Part shown: one piece after another, positions 2,856 through 54,830 of the stretch
Numbering within the stretch: position 1 is the stretch's first letter
Layout of the letters: each line of letters opens with the position of its first letter
Source of the DNA: Leucoraja erinacea
Lineage: Eukaryota
Assembly (NCBI RefSeq): GCF_028641065.1
Contig: NC_073389.1
Coordinates: 23,498,001-23,562,000 of the forward strand
Direction: 5' to 3'
Length of the DNA stretch: 64,000 nt
The notes under the pieces: model-generated
Seen by the model: only the letters and a program-made list of their open reading frames with translations
The model's database searches: none
Told to the model about the DNA's origin: nothing
Position numbers and translations under genes: made by a program

Positions 2856-3399
2856 CTCTAATTGTGAAAGAGGAGGTAGAGGGTCTCGACCCGAAACGTC
2901 ACCTATTCCTTCTCTCCATAGAAGCTGCCTTACCCGCTGAGTTTCTCCAGCATTTTTGTCTACCCTCTATTTGTGAAAGGTCATTTATCTGAAACATTGA
3001 CTGCGCTTCTACCTCCACATGTGCTACCTCGTACCTGCTGCCCTGAGCATTTCTAATATTTTTTGTTTTCAATTTCAGATTTCCAACACCCAGTTTCATT
3101 TCTTTGCTTTTCAAACAGAAAAGCATTCCCTCCACTCATGCTGCCTGATCTGCTGATCTGTTGGGTTTTGCTGAAGATACCAGCATCTGCAGTCTCTGTT
3201 GTCTGCTTTGCTTAGGTTACCACTGAACCATTGGAGGTGGTCGGCCTGCTGGTGGAACATTGAGTCCAGTGTAACGTCCCGTAGGTAAGTTGGTATCTAT
3301 AGGGATAGTGCAGTAGGACTGAACTTAAATGTAAAATAAGATGAACTGAGGTGGTGGTGGACCAGAGGGATGGGATGGGAGAGGGTTTAAAAGCCAAGT

Positions 3400-3700: not shown

Positions 3701-4544
3701 GCTAGAGTAGAGGGCCTCCTCTCGTCTCTTTGCTTTACATCCCTCGAGGTCTTAAAAAGAGTCCCGATCCGAAAAGTCACCCATCCCTTTTCTCCAGAGA
3801 TGCTGCCTGACCCGCTAAATTACTCCAGCACTTTGTGTCTGTATTTGGCATAAATCAGCACCTGCAGTTCTTTGTTTCTACACAAAGAAGCTCCTCTAGT
3901 ATCTTTGATGTCCACCACCTCCATCTGGTCTGACGAAGAGTTCAGGTCCGTATCCATGTTCTCCAGAGATGTTGCCTGACCCGCTGAGTTACTCCAGCAT
4001 TTTGTGCCTTTTTTTTTGTAAACCAGCATCTGCAGTTACTTGTATCTCCTTCTTACTGCCCCACTCTCAAATCTCCAGGTATGCTCACTTTGAAGAAGTT
4101 CTCTGACAAGAGACCTTCTCTCACTGCTTCGCTGATTTCTGCAAGATTAATCTGTAGAAGGGACCTGGCCCAAAACATCAACCATCCTTTTTGCTTCAAA
4201 GAAGCTGCCTGGCCCGCTGAGTTACTCCAGCACTTGAGTCCTTCTGCTCGGAGTTAGTTTGGTCATCCATGATTGTCCCAACATTTGACTGAAAGATAAG
4301 CATTGGGTGACTTGCCTACTTACATTAATAATAACAATATAATTATAAGTAAGAGAGGGCAGAAACAAGCCCTACTTCAGCCCACTGTGGCCATCTATAC
4401 TTTTCCCATTTATCAGCACTTGGCCCGTAGCCTTCTGTGATTTGGTTATTCAAGGCCTCATCCAGATACATCTCAGATATGGGAGGTGCCTCCATCACTG
4501 TCCCCAGGCAGTGCATTTCAAGTTCCAGCCACCTTATAGTCAGA

Positions 4545-27105: not shown

Positions 27106-28164
27106 CCTGTACACCACTCTGCCACCCCATGCATCACTGACTTTGCAACAATTTTTTTGAAAAACAACATTTGCAGTTCCTTGTTTCTACCTATTTGCTT
27201 CTTTGGTGACAAGAAAAAGGAAATAACTAATGAAGTCCTTCAGAGAACACCAGTGGTTCTATTGACTTGTTATTACTTATGCACAACCATGAGGGTTCTA
27301 TTACTTTGTTAATACAGAAATATGCACGGGATGGAACTTTCTGATGCACATTTAATTTCAATGGGTTTTTAAACAAAAAAATCATGATGTGATATTTTAA
27401 AAACCGCTTAGCGGTTTTCCATCCTAGTGCAACAAATTTAGTGCTGTCTACTTGTAAAATATATTCATTAAATATAGAAATTTTGATGCCACAGACTTGG
27501 TGGGCTAATTTGTTTACTTCCAGGCTATATCTCTCTCTGATTGGGATATCAGCCTCCTCACTTTAAATCCTTAAGATCAGGTAATTCTCCTGTGTAAGTT
27601 TAGTTTAGATATACAGTATGAAAACAGGTACTTCAGCCCACCAATCCATGCTGACCATTGATCACCCATTCACATTAGTTCTATGTTATCCCACTTACCC
27701 TACATATTAGGCACAATATACAAAGGCCAGTCAACCTACAAACCTGCCGTTTTTGGGATGTGGGTGGAAACCAGAGCAACCAGATTAAACCCACATGGTC
27801 ACAAAAAACGTGCAAACTTAACCCGAGTTCAGGATCAAACCCAGGTCTCTGGAGTTGTGAGGCAGCAGCTGTACCAGCTGCACCATTGTGCTGTTATATA
27901 TATATTTGTTTTTAATTGCCTCACTTTTTGGTAGGGATGAAAACTATTTTGGGCACTTTTCAAATAAATTATAGATTTCACTCGTGTTCAAACTGGCCTC
28001 AACCACTACAACAGAAACAGATTAATTAGCCTTTCATCTAACATTTTTGGTCTTTGCTACATACATATTTTCTGCCTATTTTTTGCTTAACGATAGGGTA
28101 CATATTTCAAAATGAATTCATCGTGTGTAAAGTGCTTTGGTGGACCCAGAGGATATTCTGTAAA

Positions 28165-28259
28165 GGTGGACAAAAATGCTGGAGAAACTCAGCGGGTGAG
28201 GCAGCATCTATGGAGCGAAGGAAATATGCATCGTTTCGGGTCTAAAACCTTCTTCTGAC
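28165..28259 (-). mobile_element. Solo Penelope terminal-repeat fragment with TSD
   Basis: Flanked by aggatattctgtaaa (28150-28164) and aggatgttctgtaaa (28260-28274). Confidence 0.75.
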
Positions 28260-29078: not shown

Positions 29079-29381
29079 TTATGAAAATAAGCACCAGTAA
29101 ATGAAATTAAAAAGAATAAACGCTGAAGGAAATAAAACTCTTGAGTAAGTGTCAATAGCATGATTGTTTTTTATAATAATTTCAACAATGTTACCCTTAA
29201 CTGATTTCCTTTTTCTTAACTGTTGACCGCCTGGATTTCGGCCAGTTGGGTGTTCACTAGCTTCAGTATTTGATACATTTAAGTGAGCTTCACCGTAGTG
29301 TGACAGATCCAGTTGACTGTCATGATAGCAACCATCGAAGGCCATTATTTGCGTCTGATTCAACCTAAAGGAATCTGAAAA
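29079..29381 (-). CDS. GABRR3: GABRR3 last coding exon (intracellular loop, M4, stop)
   Basis: 303 nt, TTTTTCAG|TTT. Encodes FSDSFRLNQTQIMAFDGCYHDS...NNHAIDTYSRVLFPSAFILFNFIYWCLFS*. MAFDGCYHD is characteristic of rho3. Confidence 0.93.
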   Translation of the reverse strand, partial: FSDSFRLNQTQIMAFDGCYHDSQLDLSHYGEAHLNVSNTEASEHPTGRNPGGQQLRKRKSVKGNIVEIIIKNNHAIDTYSRVLFPSAFILFNFIYWCLFS

Positions 29382-42194: not shown

Positions 42195-42391
42195 AGGAAG
42201 GAACTGCAGATGCTGGTTTATACTGAAGATGGGTACAAAGTGCTGGAGTAACACAGCGTGTCAGGCAGCATCTCTGGAGAAAAAGGATGGGTGACGTTTC
42301 GGGTCGGAATCCTTCAGTCTGCAGAAGGGTGCCGACCCGAAACGTCACCCATCCTTTTTCTGCAGAGGTACTGCCAGCACTTTGTGTTTAT
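42195..42391. mobile_element. Palindromic Penelope-derived short element with perfect 17-bp TSD
   Basis: Direct repeat ctgttgtcctgcagtgt at 42178-42194 and 42392-42408. Arms 42272-42307 and 42332-42367 are reverse complements at 35 of 36 positions. Confidence 0.88.
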
Positions 42392-42764
42392 CTGTTGTCC
42401 TGCAGTGTGTGCCTTATGCATTCTTAATAATCTAAATAAATTGGGGGGTTTTTAATGCAGCTGCGTGAAATCTGAGATAAAAATATTAGAAATATTCAAA
42501 ACATACAACAGGTCAGACAACATAAATATAGAGAATGGAAATTAGAAGAGTATTTGATTAACCTTTCGATTCTGGGTAAAACTGGGAACTGATACTAATT
42601 CTGGCATAAATGTACCAGAAAAAGGGATGAGGAATGAGATATTAGGCCTGGCACAAAGCATGTTCCAAAGAGACTAAGAGCAACTAATCAAGAACAACTA
42701 ATCTCACACCTCATCTGTTTAATAGAATATTTTCTTCATGTGTAAAAAATAAAAGAATATTTAG

Positions 42765-47095: not shown

Positions 47096-48411
47096 TTAGT
47101 TAACAAAAATTGGAGAATTCAATGTTCATACGTGATGTTGTAAACTATCTCATCTTATGTGTTGGTAATAATGATTTCCCACCTAAAACCTATCCTCAGC
47201 CAGTATTCTAAGTCAGTTCATCTTCATGAAATCGCTACAGGAGTTTCCAGATGAGCAGTTTATCGTAGAACAGTCCTTATAGAGTTTCAGATTGCTGTGG
47301 AACAAAAAGCTAAAATCTATCCCCGCCTGAAATAAAATGGCTAAACTGAACTGATGAATCCAATGATGAACGTCATTGTCTTTAATGTTATGAAAAAGTT
47401 CAGGTGGGGACTGCAGATGCTGGAATCCTGAGCTAAACACAAAGTGCCGGTGGAACTCAGCAGGTCAGGCAGCATCTGGGTAGGGAAAGGACAGACAACG
47501 TTTCACATCGGGAGCCTTCTTCAGACTAAAGTCTTTAGAAGGGTCGACATTTTTCCTTTGTTTCGGACTTGTGTTCAGTTGGAGGGATTATATTTAATGA
47601 CAAACATATTGGGTCAGATCACACTGGGCTGGGAATAACACAGAGTGCTGGAGGTACTCAGCAGGTCAAGCAGCATCTTGGGGAGGGAAGGGACAGGTGA
47701 CGTTTCAGGTTGGGAAATGCAAATCTTTAAACGTTTTAAAAGGACACAAAGTGCTGGAGCAACTCAGCAGGACAGGCAGCATCTCTGGAGAACGTGGACA
47801 GGTGATTGTAGGGGGAGGGAGAGGATGAACCTGGCAAAGGAGGGAGGAAGGACAAAGCGTGGCAGGTAATAGGTCGACATTGGTGTGGGGAGGGGGGAGG
47901 AGTTGATAGACAGATTGATGGAATAAAGGCTAGTGATAAGAACAGAAGGTGTGAGAGGTTCAAAGAGTTGTGGACTTTAGTTTAGTTTTGTTTAATTTAG
48001 AGATAGGGCTTGGAAACAGGCCCTTCGGCCCACCCAGTCCTCACCGACCAATGATCGCCCATACACTAGTTCTATCCTACATACTAGAAATAATTTACAG
48101 AAGACAATTAACCTACAAACTTGCACGTCCTCAGAATGTGGGAGGAAAGCCGAGCACCTGGAGAAAACCCAGTGGTCAGAGGGAGAACGTACAAACTCTG
48201 TACAGACAGCACCTGAGGTCAGGATCGAACCTAGGTCTCTGGCACTGGAAGGCAGCAGCCCTACTGCTGCGCCACTGTGCTGCCCAAGTAGTGGATTAAG
48301 AAGCCAGGGGGAGGAAAGTAGCAGAGGGAGGGGATGGGAGAAATAGGTGAGAGTCCAGGTAGGGCACAGAGGAAGGAAGGAAGGGGTGAGAGAGAGAGCG
48401 GGTGGGCTTAC

Positions 48412-48533
48412 CTTTCCTGCTTGACCTCTTGAGCTGCAGGGGGCTGGTGCCGTCTCTTGGCATGATTGGCACTTCCAGTTTCCATCGCAACTGGCAGCAG
48501 GGTAAGGAACATCAGCTCCCAAAACAGCAGCAT
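48412..48533 (-). CDS. GABRR3: GABRR3 coding exon 1 (signal peptide)
   Basis: GCCATG Kozak context, 122 nt, MLLFWELMFLTLLPVAMETGSANHAKRRHQPPAAQEVKQE, donor AG|GTAAGC in phase 2, matching the next exon. All nine exons total 1398 nt = 465 aa plus stop. Confidence 0.85.
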
Positions 48534-49969
48534 GGCGTTTAATGCACACTATCTCCAACGCACACAACCAAGGTAACTCAAGGCGTCATGTCAATGTGAC
48601 CAGATCACCTACGAAATCCATCAGAAAAGTACCTGCCCGTCCGAAGATGAGACACATTTCACCTTCTCTCTTTATGATCCCCAATTCTGGAGTCCACTTT
48701 TAGTCCGGTCGGGGGAGGAAAATTCTTCTTAAAATGCAAAAATAAATTGAACAGCTTTTAGAATTAACTCGCTCTGCTGCCTGACAGGAATTGTCCTTAT
48801 TTTTTTAGGATTCAGGCATGAAGATAATGTCATATTTAAATCCGCGGGACTCCAGCGTCAGGACCCAAGATGATTGCACACAAAATGCATTTCAGAAAAT
48901 GAGGGGAATGGAATGACCTTAATTCGCTTTAATCCTCTTCATCACCATGCAGATACCGTGCCAAAAGGAGTCCAATAACAATGAAATCTAATGAAACTGG
49001 AAAGGAATCACCAGCAAAGCTCGCTCATTCGCTCCTACTCCCCTGGAAACATTACGATACGGAAATATTGTGAATTTGATTAGAACCAACAAATAAATGT
49101 AGCTATGAATTTCCCCTCTCCCCATTTAAAACATAACCGTGCTTCACTGTGAAGAGTTTTATGTTTACGTGAGTAAGCATTTTGTTTGAATCCTATCAGA
49201 AAATAAATGCAAATAACATGTTGCAATAGAAATGATCTTTCTTTTAATAAGCTAACATCTACATCGGTCTATACATTAATTCAGTACATTAATAAGTGCA
49301 CTAAATTAATTAATGTACTAAATTAATAAATGGAATAGACTGGTTAATGCGTACAGTGAATGCAATAACAACACAAACCCCCGTGGTTAAATCCGCAAAT
49401 GGTCTTTTAAAAAAAATAATCTTGACATTTTCAGAATTAAGAAAATCTATGATGATTGGGAGGGGGCTAGCTGGTGACATGGGGATATTGAACAAGGTGA
49501 AAATTCCAACAGGCGACGGAGGAATTGAGACAAACAGATTGAATTCTGCAGATCTTCCCAATCCTTTGGAAAGGAGAATTAATAATAAACAGCTTTTCAC
49601 GCACGCTTGGCGAGGGGGGAAATCGCTCTTTGCAGATTAAGTTGTGGATTGTCATTGGCAAGTCTGCAGAAACCCTTCTGTCCTCGAAATTGCCTGCTCA
49701 AGTGCTCAACAACTTGTCAAAAATACTGGGATATTCCACACAAACTGCTCCAAAAAAGGCAAAGAGTGAGAACCTAGAGAGGCTAAGCCTTTACAAACAA
49801 GCGAGAGAATAGATATAAACCGCATAAACAAGGTAAACGATTGCAAAATAAGTGGGGGGAAACGTGAGAATTGCATTGATTAAAGCAAAGTATAAACACT
49901 GTATAGAAATGGATGTTTAATGTTCACCTGTGTAGGCAAGGAAAGAAACAATGAACAAGAAATAAACAA

Positions 49970-50668
49970 GGTCGACAAAAATGATGGAGAAACTCTGCGG
50001 GTGAGGCAGCATCTATGGAGCGAAGGAAATAGGTGACGTTTCGGGTCGAGACCCTTCTTCAGACTGATGTGGGGGGCGGGAGGAGGAAGGTTGAGACAGT
50101 GGGCTGTGGGAGAGCTGGGAAGGGGAGGGGAAAGAAGGAGAAAGCAGGGACTACCTAAAATTGTAGAAGTCAATGTTCATACCGCTGGGGTGTAAACTAC
50201 ACAAGCGAAATATGAGGTGCTGCACCTCCAATTTACGGTGGGCCTCACTCTGGCCATGGAGGAGGCCCAGGACAGAAAGGTCGGATTCGGAATGGGAGGG
50301 GGAGTTGAAGTGCTGAGCCACCGGGAGATCAGGTTAGTTATTGCGAACCGAGCGAAGGTGTTGGGCGAAGCGATCGCCAAGTCTCCGCTTGGTCTCACTG
50401 ATGTAGAGCAGCTGACACCTAGAGCAGCGGATGTAATAGATGAGGTTGGAGGAGGTGCAGGTGAACCTCTGCCGCACCTAGAAAGACTGCTTAGGTCCTT
50501 GGATGGAGTCAAGGGGGTAGGTAAAGCGACAAGTGTAGCATTTCCTGCGGTTACAAGGGAAAGTACCAGGGGAGGGGGTGGTTTGAGTGAGAAGGGACGA
50601 ATTGACCAGGGAGTTACGGAGGTAGCGGTCTCTGCGGAAAGGTGAAAGGGGAGGAGAAGGGAAGATGT
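49970..50668 (-). mobile_element. Penelope-like retroelement 3' part: GIY-YIG endonuclease remnant plus terminal repeat
   Basis: Minus-strand translation ...PGTFPCNRRKCYTC...RFTCTSSNLIYYIRCSRCQLLYISETKRRLGDRFAQHLRSV...PVAQHFNSPSH...LEVQHLIFRL...PSGMNIDF, with two internal stops and TAG at 50153-50151. Frame not shown in the ORF track. Confidence 0.9.
50032..50065 (-). ncRNA. Minimal type I hammerhead ribozyme motif in the Penelope terminal repeat
   Basis: Minus strand reads AGU-CUGAAGA-A-GGGU(CUCG)ACCC-GAAA-CG-UC-ACC: intact CUGAnGA and GAAA boxes, stem II, GUC cleavage triplet, and palindromic ACGU in place of stem III. Activity untested. Confidence 0.72.
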
Positions 50669-51210
50669 GGCCGGATTTACCTACAGGTTTGGTAGGCTGA
50701 AGCCTAGGACCTCAAAATCTAGGGGGCCTCCGGCCAAGGTGTATAATATTTTTGACACTGTCATAGGCCTTTCGTACATATGCTGTAACAACGCACTGTA
50801 GTCTCTAAACAACTCTTCAGTAATTTTCCTTGCCCTCCATTTCAGAATAATAGTTTTAAGGGCCTGTACCACTGTACGAGGTCATTCAAGAGCTCTCCCA
50901 AGTTTAAAAAAAATCAAACTCATGGTAAGCACGTAGAATGTACGTAGCGGGTACGTCGGAGCTCGGGACGTCTCTTAGCTGCTCGTAACGCTAACGGCAG
51001 ATACTGGGCATGTCCATGAGAGCCCCGAGTACCTACGAGCGGATATTACCGTAAATTCTCCGAGTCTGGGGAAACTCGGGAGAACTCTTGAATTAGCTTG
51101 TACAGTGGGACAGGCCTATTAAGCCGATAACTCGACACTGGCACTGGCTATAAATAAATGTTTTAAAAGGGCAGCTTTCTAGCCCCTTATCTCATTAACC
51201 ACGCTCGACT
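50669..51210 (+). mobile_element. hAT-like element end, copy 1 (interrupted by a MITE)
   Basis: Near-identical to 54567-54830 (GCCGGATTTACCTACAGGTTTGGTAGGCTGAAGCCTAGGAC...). Confidence 0.7.
50859..51118. mobile_element. PIF/Harbinger-like MITE with TTA TSD
   Basis: Imperfect TIR of about 40 bp (GGCCTGTACCACTGTACGAG / CTTGTACAGTGGGACAGGCC). The paralogous empty site at ~54755-54775 reads tagttttaagccgataac. A related partial copy lies at ~51355-51651. Confidence 0.8.
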
Positions 51211-52319
51211 GGTTGTTGTTGTTGGTCGCTCTATTCCAAAGGCCAAGGTGAGATTCCCACAGGTGTTTCCAGCATCAGGGGATCATTCCTGACAGGTAGA
51301 CTTGGCGAACCTTCTTTTACTCACCTTTTTTTTCTCTGTCCAGCTGCTGAGTTAAGAGTACGCACGAGTTAATACAGGAAACTCACGAGTCACTATGGTA
51401 AACTCACGGGCTACTAGGGTATTACAATGAGTTTAAAAGTATCAACATTTTCCTTCAAGAGTATATTTAACTCGTGGAAATCTTTCAACATGTTGAAAAA
51501 TTTTCATGAGTTAATAAGTTTTCAGAGTACCTGCCGTTAGCGTCCACGAGCTCTGACGTCCCGCTACGTTCATTCTACGTGATTACCACGAGTTTGATAT
51601 GTTTTTAACTCGGGATAACTCGTGGGTGGACTCGCACTGTGGGACAGGGGTTTTACATTAAACTGACATTGCACCTGCATTACAAGGTATAATTGGAGAA
51701 TGAAGCCATTGCATTTCATTTGGCGCATTCAATACTCAGGTCGGCCGCAAGCACTTGGATTCATTGGATTAATTTCCCTGCCTTGTAATTGTTTTGCAAA
51801 GTAGTGAACAGTGATGCCTCCCAGCAGGCAGATGATGGCAGCAGGCAGCAGGTAAGCATAAGGCAGATGATGCCTCCCAGCCTCAGTAACCCGGGTTTGA
51901 CCCTGACACCAGGTCCTGTCTGTTTGAAGTTTGCACCATTGCCCTGTGACTGCAATGGGTTTCCCCAGGTGCTCCATCTCCTCCCACGCCCCGAAGACTC
52001 TTAGTCACCTACCTACCTACACAAGATGAAAACACAAGGAACTGCAATAGGCACAAAATGCTCGAGTAACCCAGCGGGTCAGGTAGCATCTCTGCAGAAA
52101 AGAAATAGGTGACATTTCGGGTGGAGACCCTTCTTCGGACTCTGGTGAAAAAGAATAGGTAAAGTCTCGGGTGGAGACCTTCTTGAGACTGAAGAAAAGG
52201 AATATGTGACATTTTGGTCAAGTCCCTTCTTCAGATGCAGATACTGGTTTACACAAAAGGACATAAAATGCTCGAGTAACTCAGCGGGTCAGAAAGGATG
52301 TCTGGAAAACATGGGTAGT

Positions 52320-53200
52320 TCATAAGTTATAGAGCAGAATTAGGCCATTCTGCCCATCGCGTCTACTCCGCCATTCAATCATGGCTGATCTATCTTTCCC
52401 CCTCAACACCCATTCACCTGCCTCTCTCCATATCCCTTGACACCCTTACTAATCAAGAATCTGTCAATCTCTACCTTAACAATATCTATTGACTTGGCCT
52501 CCACAGCTGTCTGTGGCAATGAAATCCATAGATTCACCACCATGCGAATGGGTAACATTTCAGGTTGGGACTCTACTTCAGAACCTAGAAGTAACTAAGT
52601 TGCATCTCCCTGCACATCTAACTAAGTTACATCTAGGGTAGGTATGGTAGACTAAAGAATCACATGGAGAATAAAGGGAACCTGTGAGAAAATAAAATTT
52701 CTGCGTTACAGGTTAGGAAGAGGGGAATGGGATTAATGGGCCAAATGGTCTTTTTCTGTGTTGTAACAAGCGGATGGTGTCTGCTTAGAAGTTTACATGT
52801 TAATGCTCATGTCAGGAGCAGAATTAGGCCATTCGGCCCATTGAGTCTATTCTGCCATTTAATCATGGCTGATCTATCTTTTCCTCTCACCCCATTTTCC
52901 TGCCTTCCCCCCATAACCCTTGGCACCCTTACTTAAGCAAGAATCTGTCAACCTCTTCCTTAAAATTACCCATTGCCTCCACAGCTGTCTGTGGCAAAGA
53001 ATTCCACAGATTCACCACCCTCTGACTAAATAAGGGCATTCGGCCCATCGAGTCTATGCCATTCAATCATGGCGGATCTATCTTTTCCTCTCAACCCCAT
53101 TCTCCTGCCTTCTCCCTATAACCCCTGACACCCTTACAAGTCAAGAATCTGTCAATCCCTGTCTTAAAAATACAGGATGATTTAGTCTCCACAGCCCTGT
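52320..53200 (-). mobile_element. Three CR1 3'-UTR fragments in the same orientation
   Basis: GGCCATTCGGCCCAT...CAATCATGGCTGATCTATC...AAGAATCTGTCAA repeated at ~52320, ~52815 and ~53035. Confidence 0.78.
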
Positions 53201-53627: not shown

Positions 53628-54350
53628 ACAAGGAACTGCAGATGCTTGTTAATGAAAAAGACACAAAGTGCTGGAGTAACTCAGCCGGTCAAGCAGCATT
53701 TCTGGAGAACATGACTAGCTGACTGAAGAAGGGTCCCGAGCCAAAATGACACAGATCCTTTTTCTCCAGAGTAGTCAGGAAAAAGGTCCCGACCTGAAAC
53801 GTCACCCATTCTTTTGCTCCAGAGGTGATGCCTGACCCACTGAGTTACTCCACCACTTTGTGTCCATCTTTGGAATAAACCAGCATCTGCAGTTCCTTAT
53901 TTCTACTGTGAATAGATGACTGTCTGATTGACTGATTGATTGAAAGATACAGCAAGGTAAACAGGCCCTTCGGCCCACCGAATCCATGACGACCATTGAT
54001 CACCCGTTCACACTCATTTTATGTTATCACACTTTCACATCCACTCCCTACACACTCAGGGCAATTTACAGAGGCCAATTAACCTACAAACCTGTACATA
54101 TTTGGGATGTGGGAGGAAACCAGCGCAGCTGTAGGAAACCCACGTATTCACAGGGAGAACATACAAACACCATGCAGATAGCACCCAAGGTCAGGATGGA
54201 ACCCAGGTCTCTGGTGCTGTGAGGCAGTAACTCTACCAGCCATGCCACTGTGCCACCCTTCAGACTGATGAAAGGTCCTGACCTGAAATGTCACCTATTC
54301 ATGTTCTCCAGAGATGATGCTGAGTTACTCCCGCAGTTTGTGACTTTCTT
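53628..54350. mobile_element. Cluster: palindromic Penelope-derived element, minus-strand HE1-like SINE (~53925-54257), solo hammerhead-bearing repeat (~54260-54350)
   Basis: Family motifs as above. 54265-54295 reads CTGATGA-A-AGGT(CCTG)ACCT-GAAA-TG-TC-ACC. Confidence 0.75.
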
Positions 54351-54566: not shown

Positions 54567-54830
54567 CAGTGCCGGATTTACCTACAGGTTTGGTAGGCTG
54601 AAGCCTAGGACTTCAATATCTAGGGGGCCTCCGGCCAAGCTGTATAGTTGGAATATTTTTGACTGTCATAGGCCTTTCTTACATATGCTGTCACAACGCA
54701 CTGTAGTCTCTAAACAACCCTTCAGTAACTTTCCTTGCCCTGCTTTTCAGAATAATAGTTTTAAGCCGATAACTCGACACTTGCACTGGCAATAAATAAA
54801 TGTTATTTCATTATCTCATTGGCCACACTC
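54567..54830 (+). mobile_element. hAT-like element end, copy 2
   Basis: Starts CAGTGCCGGATTTAC, a hAT/Tip100-like terminus. No partner TIR found. Confidence 0.6.

Follow-up and report, generated by a model that had tools for sequence, protein, structure and literature searches.

Minimal hammerhead ribozymes have been described in the pLTRs of metazoan Penelope-like elements (PLEs) (Cervera and de la Pena 2014, PMC4209133). As presented in that study, these motifs have no helix III, a palindromic sequence at positions 15.2-16.2, a nucleotide between A9 and G10.1 and a G10.1-C11.1 pair, and they occur mostly as single dispersed motifs of truncated elements, with some close pairs on opposite strands. 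Single motifs were reported not to cleave and dimers to cleave weakly. A C-terminal GIY-YIG endonuclease with a CCHH motif and a CX2-5CxxC linker finger is described as diagnostic of the Neptune/Nematis type (Craig et al. 2021, PMC8557442); the copies of these elements show 5' truncation, inverted 5' copies and, often at one end, a tail of 30-40 nt. The element PAc of Anolis, which belongs to the Poseidon clade and has no linker finger, carries a hammerhead in its repeat, and its 3' ends with and without tail were linked to two internal start sites of the reverse transcriptase (RT) on a mainly uncut template (Frangieh et al. 2024, PMC11167929). Finally, animal non-LTR retrozymes are short non-coding hammerhead units related to PLE repeats, defined by tandem, complete motifs in at least two consecutive units and proposed to be non-autonomous PLE derivatives; they are reported in one chondrichthyan genome, and, of nine dimer elements tested in Xenopus, one cleaved (bioRxiv 10.64898/2026.07.22.740005).

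The window analysed here is a stretch of 64,000 nucleotides from the skate Leucoraja erinacea. Its focal motif displays the four structural characters given in PMC4209133 and, as there, the related units are mostly single and dispersed with some close opposite-strand pairs. Stem I has 2 pairs in the focal copy against 4-5 in Schistosoma and 2 in Drosophila virilis, and the focal stem II has 4. For vertebrates, that study gives about 4,000 and 9,000 as its highest counts per genome, to be compared with 55 mostly decayed units in this single window. The endonuclease end and the 5' truncation of the focal copy resemble those of Neptune/Nematis elements, and the short repeat shares with them the inverted copies and the tail; unlike these elements, the focal copy has no RT and its catalytic residues are substituted. 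With PAc the locus shares the hammerhead in the repeat, the two kinds of 3' end and signs of mainly uncut templates, but cleavage has been demonstrated with protein for PAc, whereas the focal copy is known from its sequence. The units of the window resemble retrozymes in being short and non-coding, although two consecutive complete motifs do not occur in it. Minimal hammerheads of Penelope elements are thus already known, and what is striking here is the density of copies.

No description of this repeat in skates was found in the literature searched. The searchable supplementary files of PMC4209133 (file 1 lay outside the search) yielded no shark or skate terms, and a paper on the whale shark lists Penelope merely as present. 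As subscription journals, Repbase, Dfam and preprint supplements lay outside the search, the repeat may already be catalogued.

The truncated element and its hammerhead motif

Judged by its testable features, the focal copy classifies as a remnant of an EN+ Penelope-like retroelement that bears a Penelope minimal hammerhead (Table 1). Its ends are approximate, the 5' end being taken from tblastn of RT+EN proteins (start at 50675/50666) and the 3' end from the comparison of copies, and no clear target-site duplication was found.

Table 1. Coordinates of the focal element, related units and neighbouring gene in the window.
Feature	Positions	Strand	Remarks
Penelope-like element fragment, 5'-truncated (focal copy)	49959..50677	-	endonuclease end, 3' UTR, minimal hammerhead and post-hammerhead segment; without the optional tail
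GIY-YIG endonuclease frame, decayed	50151..50675	-	CX4CX2C linker finger, CCHH motif, 2 in-frame stops
3' UTR, pyrimidine-rich, from stop to hammerhead	50065..50150	-	resembles stretches upstream of copies 10440, 16188 and 42904
Minimal type-I hammerhead motif	50033..50064	-	2-bp stem I (GU/AC), CUGAAGA, extra A, stem II GGGU/ACCC, CUCG loop, GAAA, palindromic ACGU
Post-hammerhead segment, common to the short repeat	49959..50032	-	3' limit is the putative proximal reverse-transcription start
GABA-A rho-3-like gene, first coding exon	48417..48533	-	neighbour, link without support; 92% identity to residues 1-39 of skate protein P0025
Short unit, subfamily of the focal copy	28163..28259	-	88.7% identity; same clade
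Short unit, subfamily of the focal copy	2880..2964	+	91.9% identity; same clade
Second copy with the strict pattern	54265..54292	+	AUGU for ACGU; first stem I pair broken
Head-to-head inverted pair, one example of 8	42221..42396		tail on a single arm
Short-period tandem of partial units	52043..52320	-	three decayed cores about 50 nt apart

The frame 50675-50151 contains no frameshift besides its two stops, and the glycine of the YIG motif and the conserved glutamate are substituted. With the stops written as X, a comparison with 211 candidate proteins gives 18 matches, the best coming from skates, rays and sharks (57-76% identity); with shark and ray proteins that combine RT and endonuclease the identity is 57-64%. 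When six homologous proteins were compared with Pfam, GIY-YIG was detected in all six (one above the curated cutoff) and RVT_1 in three (all below cutoff); the focal frame alone matches Pfam GIY-YIG with E=0.039, below the cutoff. The residues C74, C77, H96 and H112 of the CCHH motif are invariant in the endonuclease alignment, and the linker finger C31-X4-C36-X2-C39 of P0001 is of the CX2-5CxxC type. An earlier note, made from the letters of the window, had assigned the GIY-YIG remnant to Penelope. The elasmobranch RT+EN homologues and the presence of CX4CX2C and CCHH bear this assignment out, and the upstream frame was indeed found to match Penelope GIY-YIG domains, its homologues carrying the Pfam domain. 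Element homology ends near 50677, before any RT. Since neither a full-length element nor an RT was found in the window, clade and parentage are read from the endonuclease end, whose residues make a truncated element of Neptune type likely.

Several sequences next to the focal copy or related to it were also observed. A repeat present at 50680-50860 and 54581-54804 (91% identity between the two places) adjoins the 5' break of the Penelope fragment. At 50852-51119 lies an element of about 265 nt with terminal inverted repeats, inserted in another repeat and likely a MITE; joints of the empty site, skipping 264-266 nt, are present in all four runs. Faint remnants of the endonuclease end or UTR of older copies (69-79%) lie at 43499-43417, 47147-47101, 46747-46675 and 58995-58926. 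The skate and shark gene models P0002 and P0010 (receptor-transporting protein 3-like) terminate in this Penelope endonuclease sequence, which would come either from an error of gene prediction or from an exonised fusion present in both lineages. The shark gene model P0006 continues in frame past the endonuclease into residues that match the hammerhead region, and this read-through suggests that sharks have the same layout of endonuclease and hammerhead. Three weak matches of 24 residues from a search of viral contigs were set aside, and a scan of the window for bacterial promoters and terminators, irrelevant for this DNA, was empty.

On the minus strand, positions 50062-50035 read CUGAAGA-A-GGGU/CUCG/ACCC-GAAA-CG-UC, a complete minimal type-I hammerhead core that agrees letter for letter with the earlier description. 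C3 is at 50062 and the predicted cut follows C17 at 50035; the extra A precedes stem II and the palindrome stands in for stem III. The motif thus contains CUGANGA...GAAA...UH, the G10.1-C11.1 pair, the inserted nucleotide and the palindromic 15.2-16.2 of the minimal type I. A third pair of stem I is replaced by an A-C mismatch, likewise in most copies of the window. The core lies 88 nt past the endonuclease stop (50153-50151), close to the estimate of about 85 nt made before.

The short repeat and its abundance

A profile built from 32 copies found by blast recovers 55 units in the window, covering 5,050 bases (7.9%), and no match in 10 shuffled windows; blastn with the repeat gives 46 pieces. 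The high density announced by the earlier note is therefore real, but its count of more than 20 recurrences was too low. Only one unit of the 55 keeps a clear endonuclease, faint remnants being found at four other places. In the tree of units, the focal copy groups only with 28277 and 2875 (support 0.99, short branches), to which it is 89-92% identical; the other units show about 70-89% identity, with higher values on short pieces only. The grouping thus places most units of the window in sister subfamilies. Because it is a close sibling of only two of the 54 other units, the focal copy identifies the family of the short repeat and not its parent: the proposed parentage stands as membership of the same element group.

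Among neighbours less than 150 nt apart, we observe 8 head-to-head, 1 tail-to-tail and 9 tandem pairs. Forty-six copies reach the 3' part of the repeat, and an extension of about 35 nt (the tail) is present on 18 of 43 anchored copies, against a background of 71 in 3,000 random stretches. In the 8 inverted pairs, a script assigned the tail to one arm in 5, to both arms in 1 and to none in 2, the one-arm count being 6 by eye. The repeat therefore combines inverted and tandem insertions with an optional tail of 30-40 nt, while the focal copy itself is single and tail-less.

Fifty of the 55 units continue through the predicted cut site, so their templates were presumably uncut, in agreement with the observation that insertion in vitro does not require cleavage (PMC11167929). 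Three units start within about 2 positions of the cut site; they were discounted as signs of cut templates, since two of them look like internal deletions or junctions. The 5' ends are not evenly spread and cluster just upstream of the core, most of them within about 20 nt of C3. At the 5' end of many units, directly before the core, stands a short stretch of core sequence in reverse-complement (54241-54265, 57795, 22516, 42305-42327 and others), and fold-backs at the near-palindrome around stem I and C3 may mark a preferred stop or turn point of the RT. The tandem clusters at 3733-4241, 47425-47806, 52043-52320 and 53713-53875 contain no two consecutive intact cores. In contigs of three related organisms, joints that go back by 38-70 nt through the hammerhead resemble the tandem at 52043-52320. 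Where its cores are intact, a short tandem of this kind is a better candidate for a dimer than the focal copy.

In the related organisms the unit is very abundant, and so is the endonuclease end. In the contigs of all three, the bin of the hammerhead is about five orders of magnitude deeper than the single-copy flank (these values are sums, not copy numbers), and depth drops from 3' to 5' along the element. In organism X3, it falls from 6.5 million over about 2, 1.2 and 0.5 million to about 0.2 million, dipping in the variable UTR; these figures, again, are not copy numbers. Reads and contigs alike show that other places of these genomes very commonly carry a near-identical core.

We consider it very probable that the focal copy is a 5'-truncated EN+ Penelope-like copy, likely of Neptune type, with a complete motif, and that the roughly 55 units are shorter insertions of its own and of sister subfamilies, decaying neutrally. 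Primed at the endonuclease nick, the RT would have two internal start sites for cDNA on the RNA, one about 55-75 nt and the other about 100-110 nt past the cut site, and its templates would mostly be uncut. By analogy with PMC11167929, the proximal start may correspond to the end of the post-hammerhead segment, and the second, farther start would give the optional tail. A usual halt or fold-back of the RT just 5' of the hammerhead would then produce the units of about 100 nt and the head-to-head pairs. The hammerhead itself would likely be selected in the active lineage, where cleavage would take place in dimers of tandem copies, with the element protein, or both.

Less probable, though worth considering, is that the short units propagate themselves as non-autonomous families, SINE-like or as retrozyme monomers, which arose from 3' repeats of Penelope and rely on Penelope proteins for their copying, rather than being single truncations of full elements. 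The single clear endonuclease among 55 units, the 5' ends gathered within about 20 nt upstream of C3, the existence of several subfamilies with their own tails and the proposal that retrozymes, including those of one chondrichthyan, derive from PLEs (bioRxiv 10.64898/2026.07.22.740005) all speak in its favour. However, the upstream flanks of the units are mostly mutually unrelated or short fold-backs, a few of them continuing into the pyrimidine-rich UTR, and regular tandem arrays with intact cores are absent from the window. Moreover, the endonuclease part is about one third as deep as the hammerhead part in the contigs, so longer truncation products are common.

A broader reading would have about a million Penelope hammerhead units per skate genome, of which thousands would be intact, transcribed and cutting host RNAs in trans or with the element protein, the focal copy guarding the upstream region of GABRR3. 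The bias of about 6:1 between RNA strands described below would then reflect cutting or counter-selection. We regard this reading as very improbable; if true, it would represent the densest known seeding of a vertebrate genome with ribozymes.

The neighbouring gene and the possible activity of the focal copy

Thirty-nine of the 55 units span the core. All core letters are kept in 6 of these 39, and core, stem II and CG palindrome are all intact only in the focal copy (1 of 39 in the window); if positions were independent, 4.5 cores and 0.27 complete motifs would be expected to be intact. Letters are kept at 372 of 436 non-CpG core positions (85%), 1,382 of 1,545 tail positions (89%) and 245 of 371 CpG sites (66%), and the CpGs prone to loss sit on G12 and on the palindrome. 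The core is thus kept no better than the tail and intact cores are near expectation, which points to neutral decay. The intactness of the focal copy fits a younger subfamily under such decay. The copy had been singled out as the best candidate for activity; it is the sole fully intact copy in the window, but neutral decay predicts about that number.

With a stem I of two pairs, predicted to form in the monomer with a probability below 0.001 (0.01-0.07 for stem II), the doubt expressed earlier about monomer cleavage is justified. Single-strand folding of the focal copy gave no significant structure (z 0.7-1.2). In a dimer, the double-hammerhead fold is less stable than the best fold by 17.8 kcal/mol; as this gap is 6-27 in relatives, folding does not decide, the models ignoring core and tertiary contacts. 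No adjacent intact partner on the same strand was found. On these predictions, the focal copy, taken alone, is likely silent as a ribozyme.

In a single-cell RNA run (X23; 17.6 million reads, about 1% sampled), 15,648 reads fall on 48380-51500, all on repeats, and 14,882 of them match only in part; their loose ends indicate that most come from a sister subfamily that shares the 40-nt core. In this run, at the same sampling, there were no reads on the 15 bins of unique flank 48380-49954 and the first exon, nor any pile-up of read ends at the predicted cut site. The hammerhead bin (49955-50164) received 2,850 plus and 494 minus reads, about 6:1, and the endonuclease bins range from about 3:1 to 0.4:1. 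This bias is only a lead, with library strand, internal priming on the purine-rich strand or biology as its possible sources.

The neighbouring gene is GABA-rho-3-like: one of its exons matches a skate protein with that annotation at 100% identity over 64 residues. Its coding part lies on the minus strand between the ATG at 48533 and position 29082 and comprises 9 exons, with 91-100% identity once one alignment inflated by a gap is left out. As the earlier note had stated for GABRR3, the focal motif is co-oriented with the gene and 1.5 kb upstream of it, this distance being counted to the ATG. Units inside the gene show no orientation bias (11 sense versus 7 antisense, p=0.48). In organisms X3 and X5, single contigs join the unique flank to about 44 nt of the element, so the focal insertion is common to both; the letters of the core are unreadable in these contigs. 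No such flank-to-element piece was found in the third organism, X11.

It appears very unlikely that the focal copy works as a ribozyme, perhaps a co-opted one, and cleaves transcripts that come from upstream or read through into GABRR3, with another transcript as dimer partner or with help from a protein. Its intact core letters, stem II and palindrome, its co-oriented position 1.5 kb upstream of the gene, the insertion common to two related organisms and the cutting of the Anolis PLE hammerhead once its protein is added (PMC11167929) could be expected of such a ribozyme. Against this stand the short stem I and the low predicted pairing of both stems, the missing adjacent partner, the lack of reads on the flank and first exon and of read ends at the predicted cut position in the single run used, sampled at about 1%, the reports of uncut single motifs and little-cut dimers (PMC4209133) and an intactness that a young, neutrally decaying subfamily accounts for. 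A role of the focal copy in the control of GABRR3, which would be notable if true, has no support so far.

Conservation of the motif and significance

The strict minimal-hammerhead pattern has two matches in the window (50062 minus and 54265 plus), while of 200 dinucleotide shuffles 5 contain one, an average of 0.025. At E<=1, the Rfam scan of the window found no hammerhead among its 5 weak matches; the mir-3718 and mir-1759 matches are inverted junctions of the repeat.

The motif was also sought in 80 metagenome loci, many of them redundant, with a 38-54% identical endonuclease. Of the 69 loci with at least 300 nt downstream, 26 present the strict motif in sense 68-151 nt past the endonuclease, and none has it in antisense in that zone; a relaxed pattern is found over the 80 loci in 59 sense and 9 antisense cases. 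For the covariation analysis, 18 of 21 distinct motifs were aligned (L018, at a contig end, and the decayed L073 and L079 were left out). In this alignment 96% of cells pair, and five of seven pairs change on both sides, including all three of stem I. The covariation score of this alignment is 0.598; shuffles give 0.178, and slid controls do not exceed 0.031. As pairing of stem II was required by the search, the independent evidence comes from stem I, in which the focal U-A and G-C stand where relatives have A-U and C-G. The stems of the window copies alone show no compensatory change; the covariation of stem II proposed as a check is thus absent among these copies but present across families. 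In L044:502-1686, the hammerhead after the endonuclease end is followed by an open frame of 346 codons, possibly a partial tandem with a pLTR and then the next ORF start.

That the likeness to a hammerhead is coincidental is practically negligible as an explanation: the missing Rfam match, a predicted minimum-energy structure other than the hammerhead fold and the absence of covariation within the window are outweighed by the rarity of strict matches in shuffled windows and by distant relatives that have the same motif at the same place with compensatory changes in stem I.

The analysis gives a name to what is apparently among the most common short repeats in skate DNA, the 3' end of a Penelope element with a minimal hammerhead that Rfam misses. 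Its genomic copies lose the ribozyme neutrally, chiefly at the CpGs on G12 and the palindrome. The family constitutes a rich natural dataset on the function of Penelope hammerheads and on where Penelope reverse transcription starts and stops.
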